Part shown: one piece after another, positions 4,990-23,552 of the stretch
Numbering within the stretch: position 1 is the stretch's first letter
Layout: each line of letters begins with the position of its first letter
Assembly: GCA_047651235.1 (NCBI GenBank)
Contig: CP178758.1
Coordinates: forward strand, 210,001-242,000
Direction: 5' to 3'
Length of the DNA: 32,000 nt
Source: Candidatus Electrothrix yaqonensis
Lineage (GTDB): Bacteria; Desulfobacterota; Desulfobulbia; Desulfobulbales; Desulfobulbaceae
Made by a program: the position numbers and the translations under genes
The notes under the pieces: generated by a model
Told to the model about the DNA's origin: nothing
Seen by the model: the letters and a program-made list of their open reading frames with translations, nothing else
Database searches by the model: none

Positions 4990-6804
4990 ATGACAGCAAT
5001 AGCACAGGGAATCCGGCGGGTTCTGGTCATTGACGACAACCCGGAGATTCACAATGACATCAAGACAATCCTGCAGCCAGCTGCGGCACATGACGACTTT
5101 GACGATCTGCTTGCCGATATTACCGGCAAAGATGCCCCGCCCCGGAATCAGCTCAATCATCCCTTAATTCAGGTGGACTCGGCCTTTCAGGGAGATGACG
5201 GCATAAGATTGGTCCGGCAGGCCAGGCTGGAGGAGCGGCCGTATGCCCTTGCCTACGTTGACATGCGGATACCTCCCGGTCTTGACGGTCTGCAGACCAT
5301 CAAAGAACTGCAGAAAGAAGATGACCGCCTGCAGTATGTTATCATTACGGCCTATTCAGATTACTCCTGGCAGGAGATCAGTGATTCTCTCATCTCCAGA
5401 GACAATCTTCTGGTCATAAAAAAACCTTTTGAGTCCATAGAGATCCGGCAGTCGGCAAGCGCTCTGCTGGAAAAATGGCATATTGCCATGGAACGGGAGC
5501 AAATGCTTGCTGCTCTGGCCATGCAGCGCGACCTGCTGGAGGAAAAGGTCCGCGAACGGACAAAGGAGCTGGACCGGAAGAACAGGCTGCTGCGCCGGGA
5601 AGTGGAAGTACGCAGAAAGGCGGAGGAGCAGTTACGGCAGCACCGGGACAGACTGGAAGACGAGGTTGCCCGCCGGAGCGCAGAGCTTGTAGCCCGGAAT
5701 CAGCTGCTCACCACGGTGATCAACTCGCTTTCCTATCCCTTTCTGGTTGTTGATATTGCAGATTACAGCGTCAGCCTTGCCAACCGGGTGACATATGAAG
5801 CAGCAGGCGCACCGCCTGAGGGAGGCAGATGCTATGAGTATCTCCATGGGCTGCAGCAGCCCTGCCATGAGCACGGCCTGCCCTGCCCGCTGGAACATAT
5901 CCGCAGCAGCGGTGAGGCTCCGGTGCTTGAACATACGTACAGGGACAGAAACGGCAAGGAGCAGATCCTGGAGATACACACCTATCCGGTGCAGGAACAG
6001 GACGGGAAAAGCAGGCGGACGATTGAGTACTGTCCTGATGTTACCCGTCGGAAAAAGCTGGAAGCGGCTCTGATCAAAAACAGCAGGATAGAGCTGGTTG
6101 CCTCCTTGGCTGGCGGCATAGCGCATGATTTCAATAATCTGCTGATGGCGATTGTCGGAAATATTGAACTTGCAGCAATGAACGTGCCGGAAAACCACGC
6201 AGCCTTTCCGTTTCTGCGCTATGCAAGCGATGCCTCTGCCCAGGCAAAGGAACTGACGCATAAATTTCTTCTGTTTTCCAAGATTGATCCGCCGGTCTGT
6301 CAGGCTGTTCCTCCTGTTGATCTCATAACGGCCAGCTGTCGGGCAGCTCTGGCGGATTCCGACATTGTTCCTGAATTTCATTTTCCGCCGGACCTGCATC
6401 TTGGCTACATGGATCCGGGGCAGATCGATCTGGCTCTGCGTGAACTGCTGAAAAATGCCTTGGAATCTATGGATAATACCGGAAGAATTATTGTCTCTGG
6501 TGAAAATACGTATCGTTCCGACAAGATACATCATGAGGATGAAACAGGTGAAAAAGGAGAGTACATCAGGATAACGGTGCAGGATGAAGGATGCGGTATC
6601 CGGCAGGAAGATTTGGCCCATGTCTTTGATCCGTATTTTTCCCGCAAGAGCAGAGGAAACGGCAAGGGAATGGGGCTCGGACTCACCATTGCCGCCTCAA
6701 TTGTCCAGCAGCATCAGGGCTATATAGATATAGATTCAACTCCGGATAAAGGCACGGCCGTATATATCGAGCTCCCGGCAGCAACTGAAAGTGAACAGAC
6801 TTGA
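4990..6804 (+). CDS. Hybrid signalling protein: N-terminal receiver + coiled coil + Cys-rich PAS + HisKA/HATPase
   Basis: REC: 'VLVIDDNPE', 'YVDMRIPPGLDG', 'IITAYSD', 'IKKPF'. A coiled coil follows ('LLEEKVRERTKELDRKNRLLRREVEVRRKAEEQLRQHRDRLEDEV'), then a PAS domain. H-box 'GIAHDFNNLLMAIVGNIEL', N-box 'LLKNALESM', G1 'DEGCGI', G2 'GMGLGL'. Confidence 0.85.
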   Translation: MTAIAQGIRRVLVIDDNPEIHNDIKTILQPAAAHDDFDDLLADITGKDAPPRNQLNHPLIQVDSAFQGDDGIRLVRQARLEERPYALAYVDMRIPPGLDGLQTIKELQKEDDRLQYVIITAYSDYSWQEISDSLISRDNLLVIKKPFESIEIRQSASALLEKWHIAMEREQMLAALAMQRDLLEEKVRERTKELDRKNRLLRREVEVRRKAEEQLRQHRDRLEDEVARRSAELVARNQLLTTVINSLSYPFLVVDIADYSVSLANRVTYEAAGAPPEGGRCYEYLHGLQQPCHEHGLPCPLEHIRSSGEAPVLEHTYRDRNGKEQILEIHTYPVQEQDGKSRRTIEYCPDVTRRKKLEAALIKNSRIELVASLAGGIAHDFNNLLMAIVGNIELAAMNVPENHAAFPFLRYASDASAQAKELTHKFLLFSKIDPPVCQAVPPVDLITASCRAALADSDIVPEFHFPPDLHLGYMDPGQIDLALRELLKNALESMDNTGRIIVSGENTYRSDKIHHEDETGEKGEYIRITVQDEGCGIRQEDLAHVFDPYFSRKSRGNGKGMGLGLTIAASIVQQHQGYIDIDSTPDKGTAVYIELPAATESEQT

Positions 6805-6866
6805 TGAACAGACCGGAACGGCCTGAGCAGAGCATCGCCATGCTCATCATGTCCAGCTTATCATGC

Positions 6867-9551
6867 TCAGGCCTTCCGGGACTCATCCAGTACCTCCCTG
6901 ACTATCTCGGCAAGTTTTTTGGCATTCAGCGGCTTGACCGCATACCTTCTGATGCCGAGCTGCAGGGCCTCCTCCTCTGAAAGAGCTGCTGTATAACCGG
7001 TACAGAGAATCACAGGCAGATCCGGCCGCTGTTCCAGGATAACCCGTGCCAGTTCGCTGCCGGTCATGCCGGGCATGGTATGATCGGTAATCAGCAGATC
7101 AAAGGAATCCGGGGCTTCCTGAAACAGCTGCAGAGCCCTGTCACTCCTGGTCTCCGCTGTCACCCGATAGCCGAGGTTGCTCAGAACTGATCTGCTGATA
7201 TGGGTGATGGGCGCCTCATCGTCCACAAAAAGAATCCGTTCATGCCCCGCAGGTAATGGGGTTTCAGGTTCCTCTGCATCATGTTTATCTCCTTCCTCCA
7301 CCGAGGGCAGATAAACATGGAAGGCTGTCCCCTCTCCCGGAGTACTTTCGACTTCAATAAACCCGTTGCAGTCCTCAACCACACCGTGAATGACAGCCAG
7401 TCCGAGACCGGTCCCGGCACCCTGCTCCTTGGTTGTGAAATACGGATCAAAAATCCGGGTCATGGTGACTTCATCCATGCCGTGTCCGCTGTCCCGCACG
7501 CTCAGTCGGACAAAAGATCCCGATTTCCCCGGTTCCGTATCCGGCTTGTCAGCCATTTGCCTAGCGCTCAGTTCCACCTGCTCCAGCGTGATGTGCAGCA
7601 CGCCCTGCGCATTCCCGATGGCATGGTAACCGTTGGTGCAGAGATTGATCACAATCTGATGAATATTGGTCGGATCCGCCAGCACCAAGCCGCTCTCCGG
7701 ATCAATATTTTCCCGGATAGCAATGGTGGTCGGCAGCGAGGAGCGCATCATTTTGACCGCTTCTTTGACCAGCAGATGCACCTGGATTTTCTTTTTCTGA
7801 TGTTTGTTCTTGCGGCTGAAGGTAAGGATCTGTTTCACCAGATCTGTTGCCCGGTTCCCGGCAATGATGATCTGATCCAGATCATTTTTTATATGGTTGT
7901 CCTCAGGCAGCTCCATCCTGGCCAGTTCCGTATACCCTAGGATTGCCGCAAGTATATTGTTGAAATCATGAGCAATACCTCCAGCAAGCGTACCGATGGC
8001 TTCCATTTTCCGAGCCTGGAAGAGTTCTTCCTCCAGCTTCTTTTTATCCGTGATATCATGGGCAATATAGACGAAGTACTGAAACTGGTCTGCCTTATTC
8101 AGAACAGGGGCGGAGCAGATATGAAAAAATTTTTCCACCGGTTTATGCTCAATGGTGCTGCAGTGCTTCTGCATATCATCCAGGGAACGCACTCCCGGAC
8201 AACCGGGGCAGGGTTCTCCGGCTCCGCGGAACAGTTGGTGGCAGGTGGAACCCAGCAGCTCATCGGGTGACATCTGAAAAAAATCAAATGCCGCCTGATT
8301 GGCCCGGATAATCCGCATCCGGCTGTCCTGCAGGGTAATGATGTCCGGTATGGCGTTAAAGGTATTTTCCCATTCCTCTGTCCTGCGCATCAGCTGTTCC
8401 TGGGCCAGTTTACCGGCTGTCACGTCCTCATACACCGCGACGATTTCTCCGGTCGGTACTTTGTAGACATAGTACTCCAGCCACTGCATCTCCTCCTGTT
8501 CTTCCTTGCCTTGGGCACGCTGCACTATCGCCTCTGCAACGGAAAAACTTTCAGGATGCTCTGTCTGCATGATGCGCCGGAGAATTTCCGGCAGACCGGA
8601 ACTGCTCATATTCGGAAATACCTCGGCGATATCTCTGCCCGCAACATCCTCCTCCATGCCGAGTCGGGCAATCCTCCTGCCGGCAGGATTGACGCTTTTC
8701 ACGACAAAATGCCCCTGCTGCTCCTCGTACACGGCAATGCCGCTGGATATATTGTCAACAATACCCAGCAGGTACTGTTCCTGCACAGAAAGCTCCTGTT
8801 CTGCGGCGGCACGTCGGACAAGCTGTCTGCTGGTCTGGATATAAAAGACCACCAGCCCGGCTATACCGATCAGGTAGATCAGCATATGATACAGGATGCT
8901 TGTTTTAAACTGGGCCTGAAACATATCCACGATCTCCTGAATCGGAACAGTGATGCTGATGCCACCGCGGATATCACCGACCTTGTAGCCCTGTTCAATA
9001 TGACATTTCAGGCAGGATGCTCTGGTGATTGTCGGCACCATGACCCGTATAAATGTTTCCCTGTCTTTTCTGATCAGTTCGGCAACATCCTTTTCTCCCT
9101 GTTCAAAGCGGTGCAGGGCCTTTTCTTCCCATTCATCAGGGGTATTTTCAGGCCGGACCACATTCAGACTGGTCACCCGTCCACTGATACCGTATAATTC
9201 CTGTTCAAGCTGATAGATCTGCCGGGTCATATGGGCCGGGTTGACCAAGGTCAATTTTTCTCCTGTCCGGGTCACAACATCCCGGTCAGCAAGATGACTC
9301 AGGTACGGGTTGGGTGGATTTTTTTCGCTGACCGGAACATAAACCCCGCCGTTCTGCGCATTCCAGATCTCATACGTATAATCTTTATGGATGGCAGTAA
9401 GGCCTATTTTTCTCCCGATAAACAGAACACTTTGCCATTCATGCCGGACAAAAAGACAGAGAGAGCCGTTGATCAGGAACGACCAGAAGATAAGAGCAGT
9501 CAGGCACCAGCTGCGCAGCTGTTTCAGATCAACGCTTGTTCTTTTCTGCAT
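6867..9551 (-). CDS. Membrane hybrid sensor histidine kinase: DUF3365-like periplasmic domain with CxxCH, 2x PAS, HisKA/HATPase, C-terminal receiver
   Basis: Two TM segments ('CLTALIFWSFLINGSLCLF', 'ILYHMLIYLIGIAGLVVFYI') flank a ~175-aa domain ending in 'CLKCH' (nt 9000-9014). H-box 'GIAHDFNNILAAILGYTEL', 'DSGHGM', 'GTGLGLAV'. REC: 'ILFVDDE', 'LLITDHTMPGMTG', 'ILCTGY', 'VKPL'. Confidence 0.85.
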   Translation of the reverse strand: MQKRTSVDLKQLRSWCLTALIFWSFLINGSLCLFVRHEWQSVLFIGRKIGLTAIHKDYTYEIWNAQNGGVYVPVSEKNPPNPYLSHLADRDVVTRTGEKLTLVNPAHMTRQIYQLEQELYGISGRVTSLNVVRPENTPDEWEEKALHRFEQGEKDVAELIRKDRETFIRVMVPTITRASCLKCHIEQGYKVGDIRGGISITVPIQEIVDMFQAQFKTSILYHMLIYLIGIAGLVVFYIQTSRQLVRRAAAEQELSVQEQYLLGIVDNISSGIAVYEEQQGHFVVKSVNPAGRRIARLGMEEDVAGRDIAEVFPNMSSSGLPEILRRIMQTEHPESFSVAEAIVQRAQGKEEQEEMQWLEYYVYKVPTGEIVAVYEDVTAGKLAQEQLMRRTEEWENTFNAIPDIITLQDSRMRIIRANQAAFDFFQMSPDELLGSTCHQLFRGAGEPCPGCPGVRSLDDMQKHCSTIEHKPVEKFFHICSAPVLNKADQFQYFVYIAHDITDKKKLEEELFQARKMEAIGTLAGGIAHDFNNILAAILGYTELARMELPEDNHIKNDLDQIIIAGNRATDLVKQILTFSRKNKHQKKKIQVHLLVKEAVKMMRSSLPTTIAIRENIDPESGLVLADPTNIHQIVINLCTNGYHAIGNAQGVLHITLEQVELSARQMADKPDTEPGKSGSFVRLSVRDSGHGMDEVTMTRIFDPYFTTKEQGAGTGLGLAVIHGVVEDCNGFIEVESTPGEGTAFHVYLPSVEEGDKHDAEEPETPLPAGHERILFVDDEAPITHISRSVLSNLGYRVTAETRSDRALQLFQEAPDSFDLLITDHTMPGMTGSELARVILEQRPDLPVILCTGYTAALSEEEALQLGIRRYAVKPLNAKKLAEIVREVLDESRKA

Positions 9552-13300: not shown

Positions 13301-14113
13301 ATGACATTTGTAAATAGCAATAGAGAACACTTTATTGACCAAAGGTTTGATAAGGACGTGTCAGATATTGAATATAGCAACAAGCTGTTTTTAAGGATAG
13401 TTGCAAAGGATAAAAGATTTGAAAAAGTCGTTTTCAAACATTCAATTTTTGACACTACATATTTCAGAAATTGCGTTTTTGACTCTTGTGATTTTACAGG
13501 TTGCAGATTTGTAGGTGTTAATTTGTACGGGGCCAAGTTTACAGGATGTAAATTTGACTATGCCACTTTTGAAAGGACAATAATAGCAAGTGACGTATTA
13601 GATAATTGTTGTCCGGGTTGGGATAACCTTAAGCTGAAGTTCGCCAGAACATTGAGAGTTAACTTTCAGCAACTTGGAGATTCAAAATCAGCAAATAAAG
13701 CCATTAAAGTTGAACTTAACGCAACAGAAATTCATTTGAAAAAATCTTGGCGGTCAAATGAATCTTATTACAGGAAAAAGTACCGTGGTTGGAAGCGCAT
13801 AGGAAAATTTTTAGAGTGGTTGAACTTTAAAATTTTGGATTTTATTTGGGGAAATGGTGAAAACACATACAAGTTGACAAGAACTGTAATTTTGCTGCTT
13901 ATCGTCATGGCCTTATTTGATGTTTTAAGTTTTCAAGATCCAACAAGAATTAAAAGCTATAGCGATGCCATCCTTAAAATGCCTGAAATTTTTCTGGGGA
14001 TAACTTCCCCGAAAAAATATCCAAATTGGTATATTGCGATTATTTTTTTTACGAGATTGGTTGCTATGGGATTTTTTATGTCAATTATTATAAAAAGATT
14101 CAACAGGAGGTAA
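13301..14113 (+). CDS. Pentapeptide-repeat protein with C-terminal two-TM, channel-like membrane module (cassette gene A)
   Basis: Pentapeptide-type repeats 'FEKVVFKHSIFDTTYFRNCVFDSCDFTGCRFVGVNLYGAKFTGCKFDYATFERT'. The C-terminus carries 'WGNGENTYKLTRTVILLLIVMALFDVL' (TM1) and 'NWYIAIIFFTRLVAMGFFMSIIIKRF' (TM2). AT-rich codon usage, unlike the neighbouring genes. Confidence 0.7.
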   Translation: MTFVNSNREHFIDQRFDKDVSDIEYSNKLFLRIVAKDKRFEKVVFKHSIFDTTYFRNCVFDSCDFTGCRFVGVNLYGAKFTGCKFDYATFERTIIASDVLDNCCPGWDNLKLKFARTLRVNFQQLGDSKSANKAIKVELNATEIHLKKSWRSNESYYRKKYRGWKRIGKFLEWLNFKILDFIWGNGENTYKLTRTVILLLIVMALFDVLSFQDPTRIKSYSDAILKMPEIFLGITSPKKYPNWYIAIIFFTRLVAMGFFMSIIIKRFNRR

Positions 14114-17977: not shown

Positions 17978-18028
17978 ATTCTGCCGAAACAGTGCAGCTC
18001 GATTTTATAACCCGCCGCTCAATTGAGA
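17978..18028. repeat. Copy A of a 51-bp imperfect direct repeat (partner at 19230-19280)
   Basis: 45/51 positions are identical at a constant offset of 1252 bp. The perfect 22-bp core CAGCTCGATTTTATAACCCGCC lies at 17995-18016 and at 19247-19268. Confidence 0.85.
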
Positions 18029-18097: not shown

Positions 18098-18754
18098 TCA
18101 CAGTACAGTGAGGTTGTATGTCACATCCACCTCGAACAGGGGGAGATTCGAGTCCAAGTCGCAGATCGCGCCTTGGATATGGAGCGTGTGTTGCCCTTCG
18201 GGCAGCCGAAGCATTACCCAGAACCCGTCAGACACTGCCTCCGAGTCGTCATGATGCAGAAAGAGCGGCGATTGAGCGCGAACGATTGCAGTGCCGGAGA
18301 ACAAACTCGGAACCTCGTCAACAGTAACATCCAGCCTGCAAGCACGGCTGTTAAAAAAGCCGGGGGTATTATCGCTCATAGCACCATCTAAAAAGTCCCG
18401 CTTCTCATCCACTGTATAGCTTTCTCCAGGTCCGTTATAGAACACTAAGTTGACCAGAGGAAAAAAAAGGTGCTTTCCCTTAGGCACGGTACATTCACGT
18501 TCTATTGGACCACCTCCGCCCGTTCCGGCAAGGAACCATACAGGACCCCGTTGTCCCTTGCTGCAGTCAACGACCCCCTCTTCCATTAACGGGTTGGGGT
18601 CCTGTGACTCCCGCCACTGCCACCATTCAGCTGACCATTCACCATAGGTCTTCCCGAAAACTGCCGGATTCCCTTTGTCGCCAGCATACGCAGATCCCGC
18701 CGTTAGAAATACTATAAGCCCAAGAATAACAACTGCTGCATTACTGTTCTTCAT
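18098..18754 (-). CDS. Secreted protein of unknown function
   Basis: ATG at 18754 with AAGGAGG 8 nt upstream. Signal peptide 'MKNSNAAVVILGLIVFLTAGSAYA'. The mature part is Trp/Gly-rich ('YGEWSAEWWQWRESQDPNP', 'VWFLAGTGGGGP'). I cannot name a family. Confidence 0.7.
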   Translation of the reverse strand: MKNSNAAVVILGLIVFLTAGSAYAGDKGNPAVFGKTYGEWSAEWWQWRESQDPNPLMEEGVVDCSKGQRGPVWFLAGTGGGGPIERECTVPKGKHLFFPLVNLVFYNGPGESYTVDEKRDFLDGAMSDNTPGFFNSRACRLDVTVDEVPSLFSGTAIVRAQSPLFLHHDDSEAVSDGFWVMLRLPEGQHTLHIQGAICDLDSNLPLFEVDVTYNLTVL

Positions 18755-19398: not shown

Positions 19399-22050
19399 TC
19401 AGGTGGCTTTCAGCAAGGCAAGAATGCCCTTGATGGTAGCTGTTACAGGAGCAGCCATTCCTGCACACGCTTTTGCTGCTTCAATCAATCCTTCCGCACT
19501 CAATTCATACCATTTTCTTCGCGGTGTTTCTTTTGTCGCTTCTTTCACCAAACTATCCAGGTCTTGAGCAGCCTCTTCTCTCTTCTCTTCCGGCAGTTCG
19601 GGGAGCATCTGCTCAACTTGCTGACAGAGGCGTTCCAGTTCAGTTTTCAAAGCAGGTTCAGCATCAGATTCGGCGATTGTATTGAAACTGTTCTGGATCG
19701 TCGAGCCTGCAATTGTATTTCCGTGAACAGTTGCCCCATCACCAATAACGATACTGTTGTCGTTTTTACTTGTTTCACTAACCATAATATCCCCCTTTGG
19801 ATTATGAAAATTGTATATTGTTTTCCCCTCATTTTCCTGCTGATACGCCGGTCTCGCCTCTCTGGGCATGATCTGGAGGATTTTGCTCAAATCAAATTTG
19901 CCCGCTTTGCAGATGTATTCTGTGCCGCCGTTTTCTTCCAAGGCGAGGAGATCCTGAAAGTCAGCGCGGACGACCTGCTCGGAGCGGTGGAAGTTCAGCG
20001 GCGGGGCACTGATTCTGCTTTCTTCCGGTACAATCACGAATTCCTCAAAACGGAGTTCCGGCATCAGATCAAGAAGTTTATGAATATCTCGATAGATAAT
20101 TTTGAAATAGTCGTTTGCCTTTTTGCCATGTACCCAGATAGCCAACTTGCGGTCATGGTAATCAACCTGAATTAAGGCTTCTGCTGTTTCATCCTTAGAA
20201 TGCAGGATGACACCATTCTGCCAGACCATTTTTTCCTTGATCTCGTCATGGAATTCCACAATGAAGTTAGGCATGATGTGGCGGGGCAGGAAGCCGGTAA
20301 AATCGAACTCAAAGGCAAGGCTATCCTTTTTGTTAAAACTGTGCTCGGGCTGATCGGAGTTCAGTAGAGCCGGGATGATAATCTTGTCCGGTTCATGGCG
20401 GCAGGGAAAGCAGAGTTTGAACTGTTCCATCGCCTGAATGACAATGGCCGACTTTTCCGGTGGATAATTGAGCACATTGCCCAGATTGTCCTCAACCTTG
20501 GCGGCACTGAGGATGCGGACAACCTCGTCCCTGTCCAGCCTGCCCTGCTTTTCCTTAGCCTCGTTGGAATAGAGCAGGGTATAGACGCCGTAGGTCAGCC
20601 ATCTGGGATTAAGGATATAACTGTCCAGAGCAGCTAATTTGGGAAAATGGACAATCACGCCGAGCTTGTCAAAGAGGTCCAGGAGCCATGCCTGATTCAG
20701 GTCGCCCTGCTCGGCAAGCCCTTGGTCTGCGCAGAGATCAAGCCAGTCGGTTTTGGGGAGAAAAGATTCCGTGCCGGATCGGTCGGTCAGCTCATCCAGA
20801 ACGGCCAGATGAGCCTTGCCAAAGCGGACGGTATGCACGCCCAGTTCCGCAACCTCTTTGCTGAGGTCGTTTTGGAAACGCTGAAACTCCAGGGCATATT
20901 TGTTTTGGTATTGGGTGCAGGAGAGCGGGTAAAAACCGAGCACGTTATCATGCTTTTCCTTGAGCCGGGCCATGTCCAGGTTAACCGCGCAGAGATCGGC
21001 TTTATTACCGACCAGCATAACCGGGGCCTTATTGCCAAAGGCCCGCACATGCTCCAGCCAGTATTCGGCCTGCTCATTGGCGTTGATCTCGGTACGACCG
21101 TCCAGGAGGAGGACATAGAGACAGCGGGAGCGGAGAAAGAACTGGTGGGTGGCGTGGGCCACGACTTGTCCTCCGAAATCCCAGAAATGGGCGGTGATTT
21201 CCGTGTCCGGTACCTGCCAGGTGGAGATATCTATGCCCGGCGTCATTTTTTCTTTGCCCTCATCTACTTCCAGGCCGTTCAGGGCTCGGATGAGGGAGGT
21301 TTTGCCTGCTTCCCCATAGCCGAGAAAGATAACGCGGACTCGGTTGAGGGGGCGATCTGTTTGGCTGAGGTTCTTCAGGTAGGCATTGATCTGCGCCGGT
21401 TCCTGAGCCAGCTGTTCTTCGGAAAGATAAACGATAGCCTTGAGCAGTTCCGTATCCGGCTCTTTTCCCTCCAGCCAGTCCTGGTACCAGTCGGCCCAGA
21501 TGTCAAAGCCGAAGCCGTAGTCGCGAAGAACCTGAACAAATTCTTTGCTGCGTTGATGCCATACATCTTCCGGGGTCCAAAGCGGTTGCAAGAGATATGC
21601 TGCGACTTTTTTATCTTCTTGGTATATTTTTTTCAAAAAAGAAATTTCTTTTGCAACATCTATGCCAGCAGTGGAGGCGGCGTAGGAGGCGTAGGAGGCG
21701 GAGGAGGCGGAGGAGGCGGCGGAGGCGGCGTAGGAGGCGTAGGAGGCGGAGGAGGCGGAGGAGGCGGCGGAGGCGGCGTAGGCGGAGGCTTTGGCGGCGT
21801 AGGCGGCGGCGTAGGCTTCGGCGTAGGAGGAGGCGGCTTCGTAGACGTAGGCGGCGATACCATTAGCCCGCAGCACGGCAAACAAATACTGTGATCGCTT
21901 CTCGTCCGGCCAGTAGGCAAAATAAAGATCAGTTAGTTGCTTTTTTTCTAACAATGCAGGCAGGCATTGGGCCGCAGTCCGGACGGCAAAGGCAGCTACC
22001 CATTCCCTAGGCAGCTGTTCCAGTTCTTTTCGTATTTCTTTTTTGTTCAT
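19399..22050 (-). CDS. Roc-COR (ROCO-type) GTPase, 883 aa, with unassigned N-terminal helical/Ala-Ser-Tyr-repeat/Trp-rich module and unassigned C-terminal tail
   Basis: ATG at 22050 (MNKKEIRKEL) with AAGGAAG 5 nt upstream; the ORF-track start at 22113 is rejected. GTPase motifs: G1 'GYGEAGKTS', G3 'DFGGQ', G4 'NKAD'. COR-like blocks: 'LLDLFDKLGVIVHF', 'IIIPALL', 'FEFDFTGFLPRHIMPNFIVEFH', 'WQNGVIL'. Confidence 0.8.
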   Translation of the reverse strand: MNKKEIRKELEQLPREWVAAFAVRTAAQCLPALLEKKQLTDLYFAYWPDEKRSQYLFAVLRANGIAAYVYEAASSYAEAYAAAYAAKASAYAASAASSASSASYASYAASAASSASSASYASYAASTAGIDVAKEISFLKKIYQEDKKVAAYLLQPLWTPEDVWHQRSKEFVQVLRDYGFGFDIWADWYQDWLEGKEPDTELLKAIVYLSEEQLAQEPAQINAYLKNLSQTDRPLNRVRVIFLGYGEAGKTSLIRALNGLEVDEGKEKMTPGIDISTWQVPDTEITAHFWDFGGQVVAHATHQFFLRSRCLYVLLLDGRTEINANEQAEYWLEHVRAFGNKAPVMLVGNKADLCAVNLDMARLKEKHDNVLGFYPLSCTQYQNKYALEFQRFQNDLSKEVAELGVHTVRFGKAHLAVLDELTDRSGTESFLPKTDWLDLCADQGLAEQGDLNQAWLLDLFDKLGVIVHFPKLAALDSYILNPRWLTYGVYTLLYSNEAKEKQGRLDRDEVVRILSAAKVEDNLGNVLNYPPEKSAIVIQAMEQFKLCFPCRHEPDKIIIPALLNSDQPEHSFNKKDSLAFEFDFTGFLPRHIMPNFIVEFHDEIKEKMVWQNGVILHSKDETAEALIQVDYHDRKLAIWVHGKKANDYFKIIYRDIHKLLDLMPELRFEEFVIVPEESRISAPPLNFHRSEQVVRADFQDLLALEENGGTEYICKAGKFDLSKILQIMPREARPAYQQENEGKTIYNFHNPKGDIMVSETSKNDNSIVIGDGATVHGNTIAGSTIQNSFNTIAESDAEPALKTELERLCQQVEQMLPELPEEKREEAAQDLDSLVKEATKETPRRKWYELSAEGLIEAAKACAGMAAPVTATIKGILALLKAT
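21673..21782. repeat. Perfect 48-bp tandem duplication (plus 14-bp third start) inside the Roc-COR gene, encoding (AASSASSASYASYAAS)n
   Basis: 21673-21720 and 21721-21768 are identical: GGAGGCGGCGTAGGAGGCGTAGGAGGCGGAGGAGGCGGAGGAGGCGGC. The next 14 nt repeat again before diverging. There is an internal 9-nt sub-period. 48 nt equals 16 codons, so the repeat is in frame. Confidence 0.95.
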
Positions 22051-22144
22051 ACGCTTCCTTCGGGCCGTGACCCTACGACACCATGAAGTTTCTCCAGCCT
22101 CCTCGTTGATCATTGCCGCGACTTAAATAACCGGGCAGGGCATT

Positions 22145-22777
22145 ATGCAGATGAAAAACATAATTTTCGGAAAAACGCAAGATATTACGGTCGGACAAAC
22201 TGTCAACATGCCCTTCTGGATTTCTCTGCTCACTGAAAAAATACAGACACTCAACCCGGCTTTTGCAGCCGGGTTCCGGCAATGGCTGTGGCAGCCCGGT
22301 ATGTGCTTTCAGGACGACCAGCTCTGGTGGGGCGAGAGAAAGAAACGCATTACCGCTCATGAGGGAATTGACCTGGCCTGTTCTGCAGATCAGCAGGGCC
22401 GCATCTGCTGGCTCGCTCCCGACCTGCTTGTTCCGGCAGTATTTCCGGGCCGGGTGGTGCAGCTGCATCAGGATTTTCTGAACTGGTCGCTGTACATCCG
22501 GCATGATCGATTCAGCCGGGACGGGGCTGTGCTGCACACGGTGTACGGACATGTCCGGCCAGAGGCGACGGTCTGTATCGGGCAGGAAGCTGCAGCAGGT
22601 GAGCCGGTGGCGGTACTGGCAGGATATCCGCGCAGTACAGTTCCGCTTCATCTTCATTTCACGGTGGCGTGGATACCGGAAAACATCGCGCCGCACCAGC
22701 TTGACTGGCAGATGCTGGGGGAAAACCGGCAGATTATTCTGCTTGATCCGGCGGCAGAGTGTGATTCGTCGGGGTGA
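22145..22777 (+). CDS. M23/LytM-family metallopeptidase-like protein without signal peptide
   Basis: HxxxD motif 'AHEGIDLA' and HxH motif 'LHLHFTV', with 'HTVYGHV' between them. The N-terminus 'MQMKNIIFGKTQDITVGQ' has no hydrophobic leader. Confidence 0.7.
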   Translation: MQMKNIIFGKTQDITVGQTVNMPFWISLLTEKIQTLNPAFAAGFRQWLWQPGMCFQDDQLWWGERKKRITAHEGIDLACSADQQGRICWLAPDLLVPAVFPGRVVQLHQDFLNWSLYIRHDRFSRDGAVLHTVYGHVRPEATVCIGQEAAAGEPVAVLAGYPRSTVPLHLHFTVAWIPENIAPHQLDWQMLGENRQIILLDPAAECDSSG

Positions 22778-22780
22778 GAG

Positions 22781-23299
22781 CTATTCCCCGGCTTCCTTCA
22801 GCACAGCGTCAATCAGTTCCTGGCGGATATAAATTCCGTTTTCCACCAAAGCCTCAAGACGCAGTCTGATGCTGTCCAGCAGTCCCCGCCGCTTGGCCCG
22901 AAGCAGCAGGCCAAGGGTGCCGATCTGCGGTACATCCAGGCGCTGGGCAACCTTTCTGGCCCGCAGATCATCCAGAAGGACAGTACATCCTGCTGTGGTC
23001 TGGGCCAGGGCAATAGCCTGCGCCTCTCCCTTACCCACAAAAATGCTGAGCGGTTTGACCAGTTGCGGAACAGGGGCCCGGATTTTGAGCCACCCGGCCT
23101 GACTCACTTTGTATGCCCCGGGATAATGTCGTCCGCGCACGGTCACTTCCTGCCATACCTCCGGCGGAATAAGGACTTCTGCAAACAGGCCGGGCAGCAG
23201 ATCGAGCTGATCAATCCGTGCAAGGCAGACCAGCGGGCCGCTGTCGGCAACAGACGCGACATCACGCACTACGCAGCTCATCCCGGATTTGTTCATCAT
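22781..23299 (-). CDS. DUF3368-family (PIN-like) protein, putative toxin of a UPF0175/DUF3368 pair
   Basis: 'GPLVCLARIDQLDLLPGLFAEVLIPPEVWQEV' and 'GKGEAQAIALA...VLLDDLRARKVAQRLDVPQIGTLGLLLRAKRRGLL' match the DUF3368 pattern from memory. It overlaps the upstream gene by up to 38 nt. Confidence 0.7.
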   Translation of the reverse strand: MMNKSGMSCVVRDVASVADSGPLVCLARIDQLDLLPGLFAEVLIPPEVWQEVTVRGRHYPGAYKVSQAGWLKIRAPVPQLVKPLSIFVGKGEAQAIALAQTTAGCTVLLDDLRARKVAQRLDVPQIGTLGLLLRAKRRGLLDSIRLRLEALVENGIYIRQELIDAVLKEAGE

Positions 23300-23552
23300 C
23301 CAGATTTATAACCGGAATGCCCATGCAGCCCAATTTTTCCATAAAGTTGAACTGGTGCATCCCGCACAGCTGCGCAGCCTTACCCAACGAAAGACGGTGC
23401 AGTTCAAACAGCTTGACAGCGAGCAGAAAACACAGTTCCTTCTCAAGCCCCTCTTTTGACTGGCCGGTGGAGAGTAAAAGGTCATCGCTGTACGGTATGG
23501 AAAGTGTCGGCAGCCCTTTGACCTCATGCTCTATTTCCTTTCCCATCTGCAA
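23262..23552 (-). CDS. UPF0175-family small protein, putative antitoxin partner
   Basis: 'LSIPYSDDLLLSTGQSKEGLEKELCFLLAVKLFELHRLSLGKAAQLCGMHQFNFMEKLGCMGIPV' is the typical UPF0175 layout. The start is ambiguous: TTG at 23552 or ATG at 23546. Confidence 0.7.
   Translation of the reverse strand: MQMGKEIEHEVKGLPTLSIPYSDDLLLSTGQSKEGLEKELCFLLAVKLFELHRLSLGKAAQLCGMHQFNFMEKLGCMGIPVINLDDEQIRDELRSA

Follow-up and report, generated by a model that had tools for sequence, protein, structure and literature searches.

A cable-bacterium Roc-COR GTPase with an all-helical N-terminal domain and an exchangeable C-terminal helical bundle, a candidate NTPase-switch conflict protein

Results and discussion

Gene structure and the Roc-COR core

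We analyzed a 32,000-nucleotide stretch of the genome of Candidatus Electrothrix yaqonensis (contig CP178758.1, positions 210,001 to 242,000; hereafter the window) and focused on one complete gene at 19399..22050 (-), which encodes 883 amino acids (aa) and a stop codon. From the N- to the C-terminus, the product consists of an all-alpha domain, a Roc GTPase domain, the COR-A and COR-B domains, a linker and a helical bundle. On balance, we lean towards reading it as a self-contained conflict protein with an NTPase switch, built as one polypeptide along the lines of immune or cell-death receptors.

The open reading frame (ORF) extends over 19399..22113 (-) and yields 904 residues from its first ATG and 883 residues from the ATG at 22050. 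The shorter form matched, with 100% identity and coverage, an NCBI entry from the cable bacterium Candidatus Electrothrix sp. YB6 that is named "COR domain-containing protein". An equivalent MN(K/E)(K/E)EI forms the N-terminus of homologs, which supports the ATG at 22050, and a Shine-Dalgarno-like AAGGAAG, read from the sequence at 22054..22060 (-), lies 3 nt 5' of it. Because of the identical NCBI form, the homolog N-termini and the spacing of AAGGAAG, we retained the start codon and the K250 numbering of the first-pass annotation, an earlier reading made from the letters of the window alone, which had also given the gene its own Shine-Dalgarno sequence.

The Roc domain (aa 239-352; 20995..21336 (-)) matched Pfam PF08477 with an E-value of 1.5e-22 and a score of 80.5 bits against a cut-off of 27. 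On its C-terminal side lie COR-A (aa 414-563; 20362..20811 (-); PF16095, 7.5e-24, 84.7 bits) and COR-B (aa 577-727; 19870..20322 (-); PF25497, 4.3e-25, 88.7 bits). The complete Ras-like Roc and the COR blocks perceived in the first-pass annotation, for which it had proposed a hidden Markov model search, were thus recovered as strong matches well above the Pfam thresholds. By domain criteria, the gene product classifies as a predicted ROCO protein, as Roc, COR-A plus COR-B and the G1, G3, G4 and G5 motifs are all present. The P-loop GYGEAGKTS (G244-S252, including K250) is located inside Roc at 21295-21321 (-). When 15 diverse homologs with 39-72% identity were compared, the P-loop residues G244, G246, G249, K250, T251 and S252 were invariant, as were T270, the DFGGQ motif (D291-Q295), N349 and D352 of NKxD, and S377-C378. 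This invariance of the G-motifs argues that the GTPase is under purifying selection as an active switch, and Roc-COR is predicted to act as the catalytically intact, GTP-dependent switch of the protein and as its oligomerization core.

According to Pfam, the NTPase core is a Ras-like Roc and not a STAND ATPase of the NACHT or NB-ARC type. The closest solved structure is Methanosarcina barkeri Roco2 (MbRoco2, 4wnr; 2e-62), followed by Chlorobium tepidum Roco (CtRoco; 3dpu, 6hlu and 8r4b) at approximately 1e-52 over query residues 235-732; the next structural match is LRRK2 at 2e-14. Bacterial Roco proteins serve as structural models for human LRRK2. As had been stated from the letters, no leucine-rich repeat (LRR), ankyrin or kinase module was matched by Pfam in the 883-aa protein; the same scan gave no TIR domain, and no LRR-like motif was seen at the N-terminus of the family members L014 and L024.

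The N-terminal all-alpha domain

The region preceding Roc (aa 1-235; 21346..22050 (-)) was modeled with AlphaFold2 (AF2) from a 30-sequence alignment. The model showed a single all-alpha fold of 14 helices with a mean predicted local distance difference test score (pLDDT) of 86.7 and a predicted TM-score of 0.84. It is composed of N1 (aa 1-65), an Ala/Ser/Tyr-rich helical insert or array (aa 66-128; 21667..21855 (-)) with a pLDDT of 62-79, and the Trp-rich block N2 (aa 129-235; 21346..21666 (-)), in which F182, W185, W188 and Y224 are invariant in the alignments. The first-pass annotation had listed a helical segment, a low-complexity array and a Trp-rich block as three separate parts; this division did not hold, as the three parts form one domain in the model and travel together in other proteins.

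Whereas N1 and N2 are kept in nearly all of the 120 best homologs, the array is hypervariable. It gave no BLAST match to any of these 120 proteins, the 78%-identical orthologs included, and its length and sequence differed in all 17 N-termini inspected. Inside the insert, at 21673..21782 (-), Tandem Repeats Finder detected a perfect 48-nt tandem repeat (period 48, 2.3 copies, 100% matches, score 220) that encodes (SAASSASSASYASYAA)n.

The alpha domain found no match in Pfam (30 members searched) or NCBIfam, and PDB sequence profiles returned only noise or designed helical bundles. With a cut-off of E<=0.001, a Foldseek search with the AF2 model produced no match in the PDB (best E 5.3) or among predicted viral structures. 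As evident from a profile of N2, the block is nevertheless widespread, with 1577 clusters at E<=1e-3 and 276 at E<=1e-10 among 1.84 billion cluster representatives, and many of the N2-bearing proteins are without Roc-COR. When N1 and N2 profiles were mapped onto these proteins, the N1-array-N2 unit recurred together in one to three tandem copies per protein. In particular, Pfam scans revealed three alpha units with a TIR domain in P0123, two with a TIR domain in P0211, an alpha unit with a metallophosphoesterase-NACHT-pentapeptide arrangement in the 2044-aa P0121, and an alpha unit with DUF4062 and an AAA_16/NPHP3_N STAND ATPase in P0249. The first-pass annotation had mentioned, without naming a family, similar Trp-rich blocks on other large bacterial NTPases, and the NACHT and STAND proteins bear this out.

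In many further proteins (P0181, P0184, P0199, P0200, P0214, P0134, P0195, P0213 and P0245), one or two alpha units precede a stretch of 300-580 residues. These stretches showed no Pfam match and no bundle of the type borne by the window protein (type A, see below), and they appear to be further partner modules of the alpha domain. At the locus of P0211 (L094), the first N1 segment (6792-7253) lies in another frame and overlaps the start of the called gene (7001-9259), which is likely a frameshift or sequencing error.

We then compared the window gene with four Electrothrix orthologs in a codon alignment. The Roc domain was 91-97% identical, with 0.017-0.056 nonsynonymous substitutions per site (dN), followed by COR-A (89-92%, dN 0.039-0.072) and the C-terminal bundle (79-89%, dN 0.051-0.132). 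The corresponding values were 37-63% and 0.24-0.52 for N1 and 50-59% and 0.24-0.37 for N2, while the array was 10-33% identical with an unreliable dN. The N-terminal domain thus evolves 5-20 times faster than Roc. Additionally, the window N1 is 69% identical to that of a paralog, P0024 (L012, Electrothrix sp. GW3-4), whose Roc is 76% identical; N1 is therefore nearer to this paralog than to the orthologs, at 37-63%, whose Roc is 91-97% identical. Because N1 is nearer to a paralog and the synonymous rate (dS) varies 3-fold between gene regions, the comparison suggests a mosaic N-terminus whose modules recombine between paralogs. The dN/dS ratio was dropped as proof of positive selection, since dS is saturated or heterogeneous and the insert is not reliably alignable.

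The C-terminal bundle and its exchange for other tails

The C-terminal region begins with a Gly/Asn/Thr-rich linker (aa 731-777; 19720..19860 (-)) that is predicted to be disordered (AF2 pLDDT <50, tail residues 1-47), is poorly conserved and varies in length among homologs. The linker may resemble bacterial amyloid signaling motifs (BASS); no partner protein with a segment like it was found nearby. The linker leads into a five-helix bundle (aa 778-883; 19402..19719 (-)) that was modeled with a pLDDT of 81 at tail residues 51-60 and 90-94 at tail residues 61-150. The Gly/Asn/Thr patch had been described as strand-like in the first-pass annotation; AF2 predicted no beta structure there, only a disordered linker running into helix 1 of the bundle, which does not support the strand or beta-helix reading.

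The last helices of the bundle form a moderately hydrophobic, Ala/Gly-rich hairpin, and its most hydrophobic 19-residue window (CAGMAAPVTATIKGILALL) has a hydropathy of 1.59. Conservation within the bundle is confined to Leu, Pro, Ser, Gly, Ala and one Glu, residues that form no catalytic-type pattern. Both ends of the protein had been left unassigned, and neither matched a Pfam or NCBIfam family; a PDB sequence-profile search with the C-terminus likewise gave noise or designed helical bundles. The weak Foldseek matches of the bundle included talin R13, the vinculin tail and the coiled coil (CC) of Rx (E 0.26, TM 0.21). When ten homolog tails were scanned with Pfam, only one variant tail matched SesA, at an E-value of 0.013.

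To describe the C-terminal ends across the family, the top 120 homologs were surveyed. Their core is conserved, but the 115 tails of at least 40 aa that follow COR-B belong to unrelated classes. The bundle (type A) was present in 74 of the 115 tails, a second helical type in 17, a type with strongly hydrophobic stretches in 10, and a TIR domain (PF13676, 1.5e-11) in 3 (P0045, P0062 and P0071), where it occupies the same position as the bundle. The remaining tails occurred singly or in pairs, and several were likewise strongly hydrophobic. The hydrophobic class probably contains two to four membrane-spanning helices, and one to four when all hydrophobic tails are considered. Hydrophobic tails were found on P0016-P0023, whose Roc domains are 84-90% identical to that of the window protein and whose cores have diverged about as much as those of bundle-tailed relatives. 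The presence of different tails on such similar Roc domains indicates that tail swapping is recent.

The bundle was also found outside this architecture. It ends canonical LRR-Roc-COR proteins from Thermoflexus, Anaerolineae and a Methylococcaceae metagenome-assembled genome (E 1e-24 to 1e-28), as well as a 480-aa Nitrosomonas europaea plasmid protein (NZ_CP157070.1, L013:4948-6390; 43.6% identity) that adjoins TnsA-like, DNA methyltransferase and helicase genes. In the plasmid protein, the first 295 residues belong to the precomputed family PF27061, and relatives in this family (P0257-P0332, approximately 480 aa) end in either the linker and bundle or a CHAT protease. Given the TIR and hydrophobic tails in one family and the CHAT alternative in the other, the bundle alternates with recognized effectors in two unrelated families. 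Judged from its sequence, the PF27061 family itself resembles another conflict-type protein. In addition, the C-terminus of PDC-M14B, a PADLOC family, resembles the linker and bundle (E 2e-5 with the query; 16 of 30 family tails, best 1.7e-8). Our literature searches found nothing on PDC-M14 or PF27061.

A serious alternative, which we judge unlikely, is that the bundle acts as an adaptor or oligomerization module for a separate partner, analogous to Death-like or effector-associated domains (EADs), or as an autoinhibitory lid on Roc-COR. It would account for the absence of a catalytic signature, for a resemblance confined to generic helical bundles such as talin, the vinculin tail and the Rx coiled coil, and for the bundle at the end of PDC-M14B, a protein of a two-gene candidate system; moreover, "different EADs" appear among the C-terminal options of bacterial AP-GTPase proteins in the part of Kaur et al. 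that treats them (PMC8195603). However, the alternatives that fill the same slot are bona fide effectors, namely TIR, CHAT and strongly hydrophobic, probably membrane-spanning tails, and the gene neighborhoods described below also stand against an adaptor.

Distribution of the family

Relatives were sought with the full-length alignment in one genome per species, covering 185,579 species. The scan revealed 151 relative-encoding stretches, from which 80 loci were kept; N2 was detected in 50 of the 80 and the bundle in 26. The hosts include cable bacteria and other Desulfobulbaceae, Desulfobacterales, Methylococcales, Gallionella, Burkholderiaceae, Nitrosomonas, Anammoxibacter, Alcanivoracaceae and SAR324, together with many Thiotrichales (Thiomargarita, Albibeggiatoa, Marithrix, Thiothrix and Leucothrix). 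The distribution is patchy, and several genomes contain two to four paralogs. Judged from the list of taxa, many of the hosts are filamentous, and the unicellular Methylococcales, Gallionella and Nitrosomonas are hosts as well.

Such hosts raise the question of whether the protein is instead a GTPase of cellular signaling or morphogenesis in filamentous or large bacteria. It could, for example, regulate the membrane or the cytoskeleton, and its variable ends would then serve lineage-specific regulation. The prominence of the family in cable bacteria and in large sulfur bacteria (Thiomargarita, Albibeggiatoa, Marithrix and Thiothrix) is consistent with this reading, most of the other genes in the window have housekeeping or signaling functions, and we know of no established physiological role for bacterial Roco proteins. 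We nevertheless consider a signaling role quite unlikely, because the distribution is patchy with two to four paralogs in some genomes, TIR tails occur in the family, the N-terminal domain is common to NACHT, STAND and TIR proteins, a hypervariable N-terminus stands beside a Roc domain conserved at 91-97%, and synteny is not conserved, even among Electrothrix, apart from one shared neighborhood.

Genomic context

The neighborhoods of the gene and its homologs were compared in order to identify possible partners. The ten distinct homolog contexts annotated with Pfam all differed, except for one neighborhood common to two close Electrothrix orthologs. No conserved partner gene emerged; the largest neighbor cluster was present at only 3 of the 34 full-architecture loci, partly through shared synteny of close relatives. 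The first-pass annotation had considered that homologs might sit in conserved housekeeping operons, and no neighbor family exceeding 3 of these 34 loci was found. The gene is thus solitary. Family members often adjoin TA (toxin-antitoxin) pairs of differing families, transposases or other conflict genes; a Schlafen/AlbA_2 protein, a KAP-like NTPase, DruA and RHS/SUKH genes also occur nearby.

Within approximately 6 kb of the gene, neither the window nor 12 homologous loci encode N1, N2 or the bundle a second time. Around one gene that combines the alpha unit with TIR there was likewise no second copy of the alpha unit or bundle, and the other such gene had no NTPase among its annotated neighbors. 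The lack of a second module copy nearby argues against a homotypic adaptor that links neighboring genes, a model that was not supported, and together with the lack of a conserved neighbor family it counts against the adaptor reading of the bundle in general.

Divergent from the gene, an M23-like ORF at 22145-22777 (+) retains the HxxxD (HEGID) and HxH (HLH) motifs and is overlapped on the opposite strand by a 207-aa ORF. The first-pass annotation had called a divergent M23 peptidase here; the divergent orientation stands, and the Pfam score of 27.8 bits falls just under the gathering cut-off of 28.7. It had also asked whether the M23 gene is conserved beside homologs, which proved not to be the case. 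We found it beside 0 of the 80 related loci and in none of the Pfam-annotated contexts, and it was discarded as a partner.

The toxin-antitoxin (TA) pair reported next to the gene was confirmed as UPF0175/DUF3368 at 22781-23552 (-), on the upstream side of the Roc-COR gene. A type II TA pair lies upstream on the same strand in six family contexts and also upstream of one gene with alpha units and TIR; the second gene of that kind has a HigB toxin gene alongside on the opposite strand. The TA families are DUF3368/UPF0175 in the window and L042, PIN in L010 and L005, MNT/HepT in L011 and L003, and MazE/PIN in L094. This adjacency could reflect co-location in islands, stabilization of the locus or the plain abundance of TA genes.

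The recurrence of TA pairs bears on a further alternative, which we regard as very unlikely, in which the protein serves a conflict other than that with phages, either kin discrimination or heteroincompatibility-like death in filaments or an addiction module formed with the adjacent TA pair. The TA pairs in six contexts and the TA genes beside both of the unit-plus-TIR genes examined are in its favor, as is the apparent enrichment of the family in multicellular and filamentous taxa, an association of conflict systems that is stressed in the relevant parts of the work of Kaur et al. (PMC7159879, PMC8195603). Conversely, the TA families are not conserved, which makes a functional partnership unlikely, and TA genes may simply abound in these genomes. 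At the sequence level, this alternative and antiphage defense do not separate.

Several other features were noted in the window and at related loci. The repeat element placed downstream of the gene in the first-pass annotation is probably a 51-nt direct repeat, whose copy at 19230-19280 matches 17978-18028 at 88%. The two copies flank the gene of an unannotated 218-aa protein (18098-18754 (-)) with a hydrophobic, signal-like N-terminal segment, and repeat copy A runs into a GC-rich hairpin (CCCGCCGC...GCGGCGGG). The GC content is low between 13000 and 15000 (34-37% versus approximately 50-56% around it), where a pentapeptide-repeat gene is located at 13301-14113; judged by composition, this stretch may be a horizontally acquired islet. 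In Massilia sp. BHUDP2 (L007, 5337-9104), the Roc-COR homolog is flanked by two phosphoribosyltransferase-family ORFs (179 and 121 aa) in otherwise housekeeping surroundings (hflK/hisZ/purA), which suggests an insertion beside or into a phosphoribosyltransferase gene.

Proposed mechanism and its weighing

The first-pass annotation had proposed an NTPase-switch conflict or signaling protein. Tail swapping, together with the occurrence of the N-terminal domain on TIR, NACHT and STAND proteins, strengthens that proposal. From the position of each end, its evolutionary rate and the modules that alternate with it, we infer that the N-terminus is the sensor and the C-terminus the effector. In the conflict-protein reading that we favor, the alpha domain with its hypervariable insert, which occupies the LRR position of canonical bacterial ROCO proteins, would be a sensor or autoinhibitory module. 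A putative trigger would act on this domain and change the nucleotide or oligomeric state of Roc-COR, whereupon the C-terminal bundles would be released or clustered. The bundle is most likely non-enzymatic; plausibly, its hydrophobic terminal hairpin would insert into the membrane and growth would stop. Three features make membrane attack a possibility, namely the hydrophobic tails that alternate with the bundle, its lack of catalytic residues and its moderately hydrophobic hairpin; this is the weakest step of the scheme.

A more specific combination is held tentatively, as possible and no more than that. In it, the alpha domain would be a widespread invader-sensing module, an alternative to LRR, TPR or WD repeats in Roc-COR, NACHT, STAND and TIR proteins, and would diversify in specificity as its insert gains repeats and recombines; the bundle would be a non-enzymatic, membrane-attacking death effector and, by analogy, a functional bacterial counterpart of the HeLo, CC and four-helix-bundle (4HB) domains; and the whole would constitute a single-gene, GTPase-switched abortive-infection system.

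A number of observations weigh against the conflict-protein reading. The hydropathy of the bundle, at 1.59, is below the 1.86-3.12 of the strongly hydrophobic homolog tails, so that membrane insertion is an analogy only, and the bundle had no significant Foldseek match in the PDB to a pore-forming or death fold, the best being designed bundles at an E-value of 0.15. An arms race is not the sole explanation for the rapid evolution of the N-terminus, which could instead stem from relaxed constraint or recombination, and dS is saturated in places, which makes omega unreliable. The phage collection yielded no family member, and in the plasmid collection only the Roc-COR core was matched, at 24-31% identity. 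A search of PADLOC-DB v2 gave no system-level match, the best being LeoA at 21.5 bits over the P-loop only. The genomic-context argument is weak, as M23 is beside 0 of 80 loci and the TA families next to homologs differ; several host taxa are ordinary unicellular methanotrophs; and the mostly housekeeping or signaling character of the other window genes points the same way. A role of the family in phage defense is putative and is what we infer from its architecture.

The family, with an architecture suggestive of an immune receptor, offers a concrete and testable function for the Roc-COR switch, and it defines two portable modules, the alpha domain (approximately 1,600 protein clusters) and the helical-bundle end module. 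If validated, both modules would add to the known components of prokaryotic innate immunity and would tie the death or immunity GTPases of bacteria and eukaryotes more closely together in evolution.

Comparison with known systems

The homology to CtRoco and MbRoco2 covers Roc, COR-A and COR-B (1e-52 to 2e-62 over about residues 220-732) with intact G-motifs. CtRoco departs from the window protein in its N-terminal LRRs and in its C-terminal region. To our knowledge, no biological function has been assigned to either protein, and no experimentally tested bacterial Roco defense system was found in our literature searches.

Among systems with a C-terminal end module on a bacterial Roc-COR core, the Roc-COR-CHAT protease of the Runella gasdermin system was produced in purified form for assays of gasdermin cleavage (Johnson et al., bioRxiv 10.1101/2021.06.07.447441), and its CHAT module is a cell-death effector. 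That protease targets a neighboring gasdermin, whereas no protease, gasdermin or conserved partner gene accompanies the gene described here. PDC-M14B shares the C-terminal linker and bundle with the window protein; in contrast, it is approximately 260 aa long, has no GTPase and belongs to an uncharacterized two-gene candidate system.

The overall logic is similar to that of NLR/STAND receptors whose N-terminal helical bundles target membranes (HeLo, MLKL 4HB, plant CC, bacterial Bell) and of bacterial defense proteins that use transmembrane effectors, in that a sensor, a switch and a small helical module are combined in one polypeptide. The helical module is interchangeable with TIR, and the alpha domain of the window protein is itself also fused to NACHT and STAND ATPases. 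The differences are that the switch here is a Ras-like GTPase with the helical module at the C-terminus and that, in the Pfam and PDB Foldseek searches, the bundle showed no significant match to HeLo, MLKL or CC.

The closest counterparts are the prokaryotic AP-GTPase (Roc-COR) counter-invader systems predicted computationally by Kaur, Iyer, Burroughs and Aravind in 2021 (eLife 10:e70394, Fig. 6D; PMC8195603). As set out in the part of that paper devoted to them, these are LRR-AP-GTPase-COR proteins with at least 24 alternative C-terminal domains, and the effectors named include TIR, DRHyd, caspase, trypsin, FGS and different EADs (PMC8195603). The idea of such proteins with variable effector ends is therefore already known from that computational work (PMC8195603); what is new here is the two end modules, which match no family model in the libraries searched. 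An all-alpha N-terminal domain of approximately 235 aa is found here in place of the LRR, and the five-helix bundle does not appear in the effector list of that part of the paper. As far as these systems are described there, the likenesses are a Roc-COR core, a fast-evolving N-terminal module, and a variable C-terminal slot that includes TIR. Genomes can contain multiple paralogs in both cases, and a leaning towards filamentous bacteria may be a further likeness. Because both ends behave as modular slots around Roc-COR, in the sensor-switch-effector manner of NLR-like immune receptors and in agreement with the systems predicted by Kaur et al., the gene is best classified, at the level of its predicted domains, as a non-LRR variant of the predicted Roc-COR AP-GTPase class, in which the N-terminal slot appears to hold either LRRs or the alpha unit and the C-terminal slot the bundle, TIR, a hydrophobic tail or another type. 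A direct bridge between the two is provided by the type-A bundle of this protein, which is also carried by true LRR-Roc-COR proteins.

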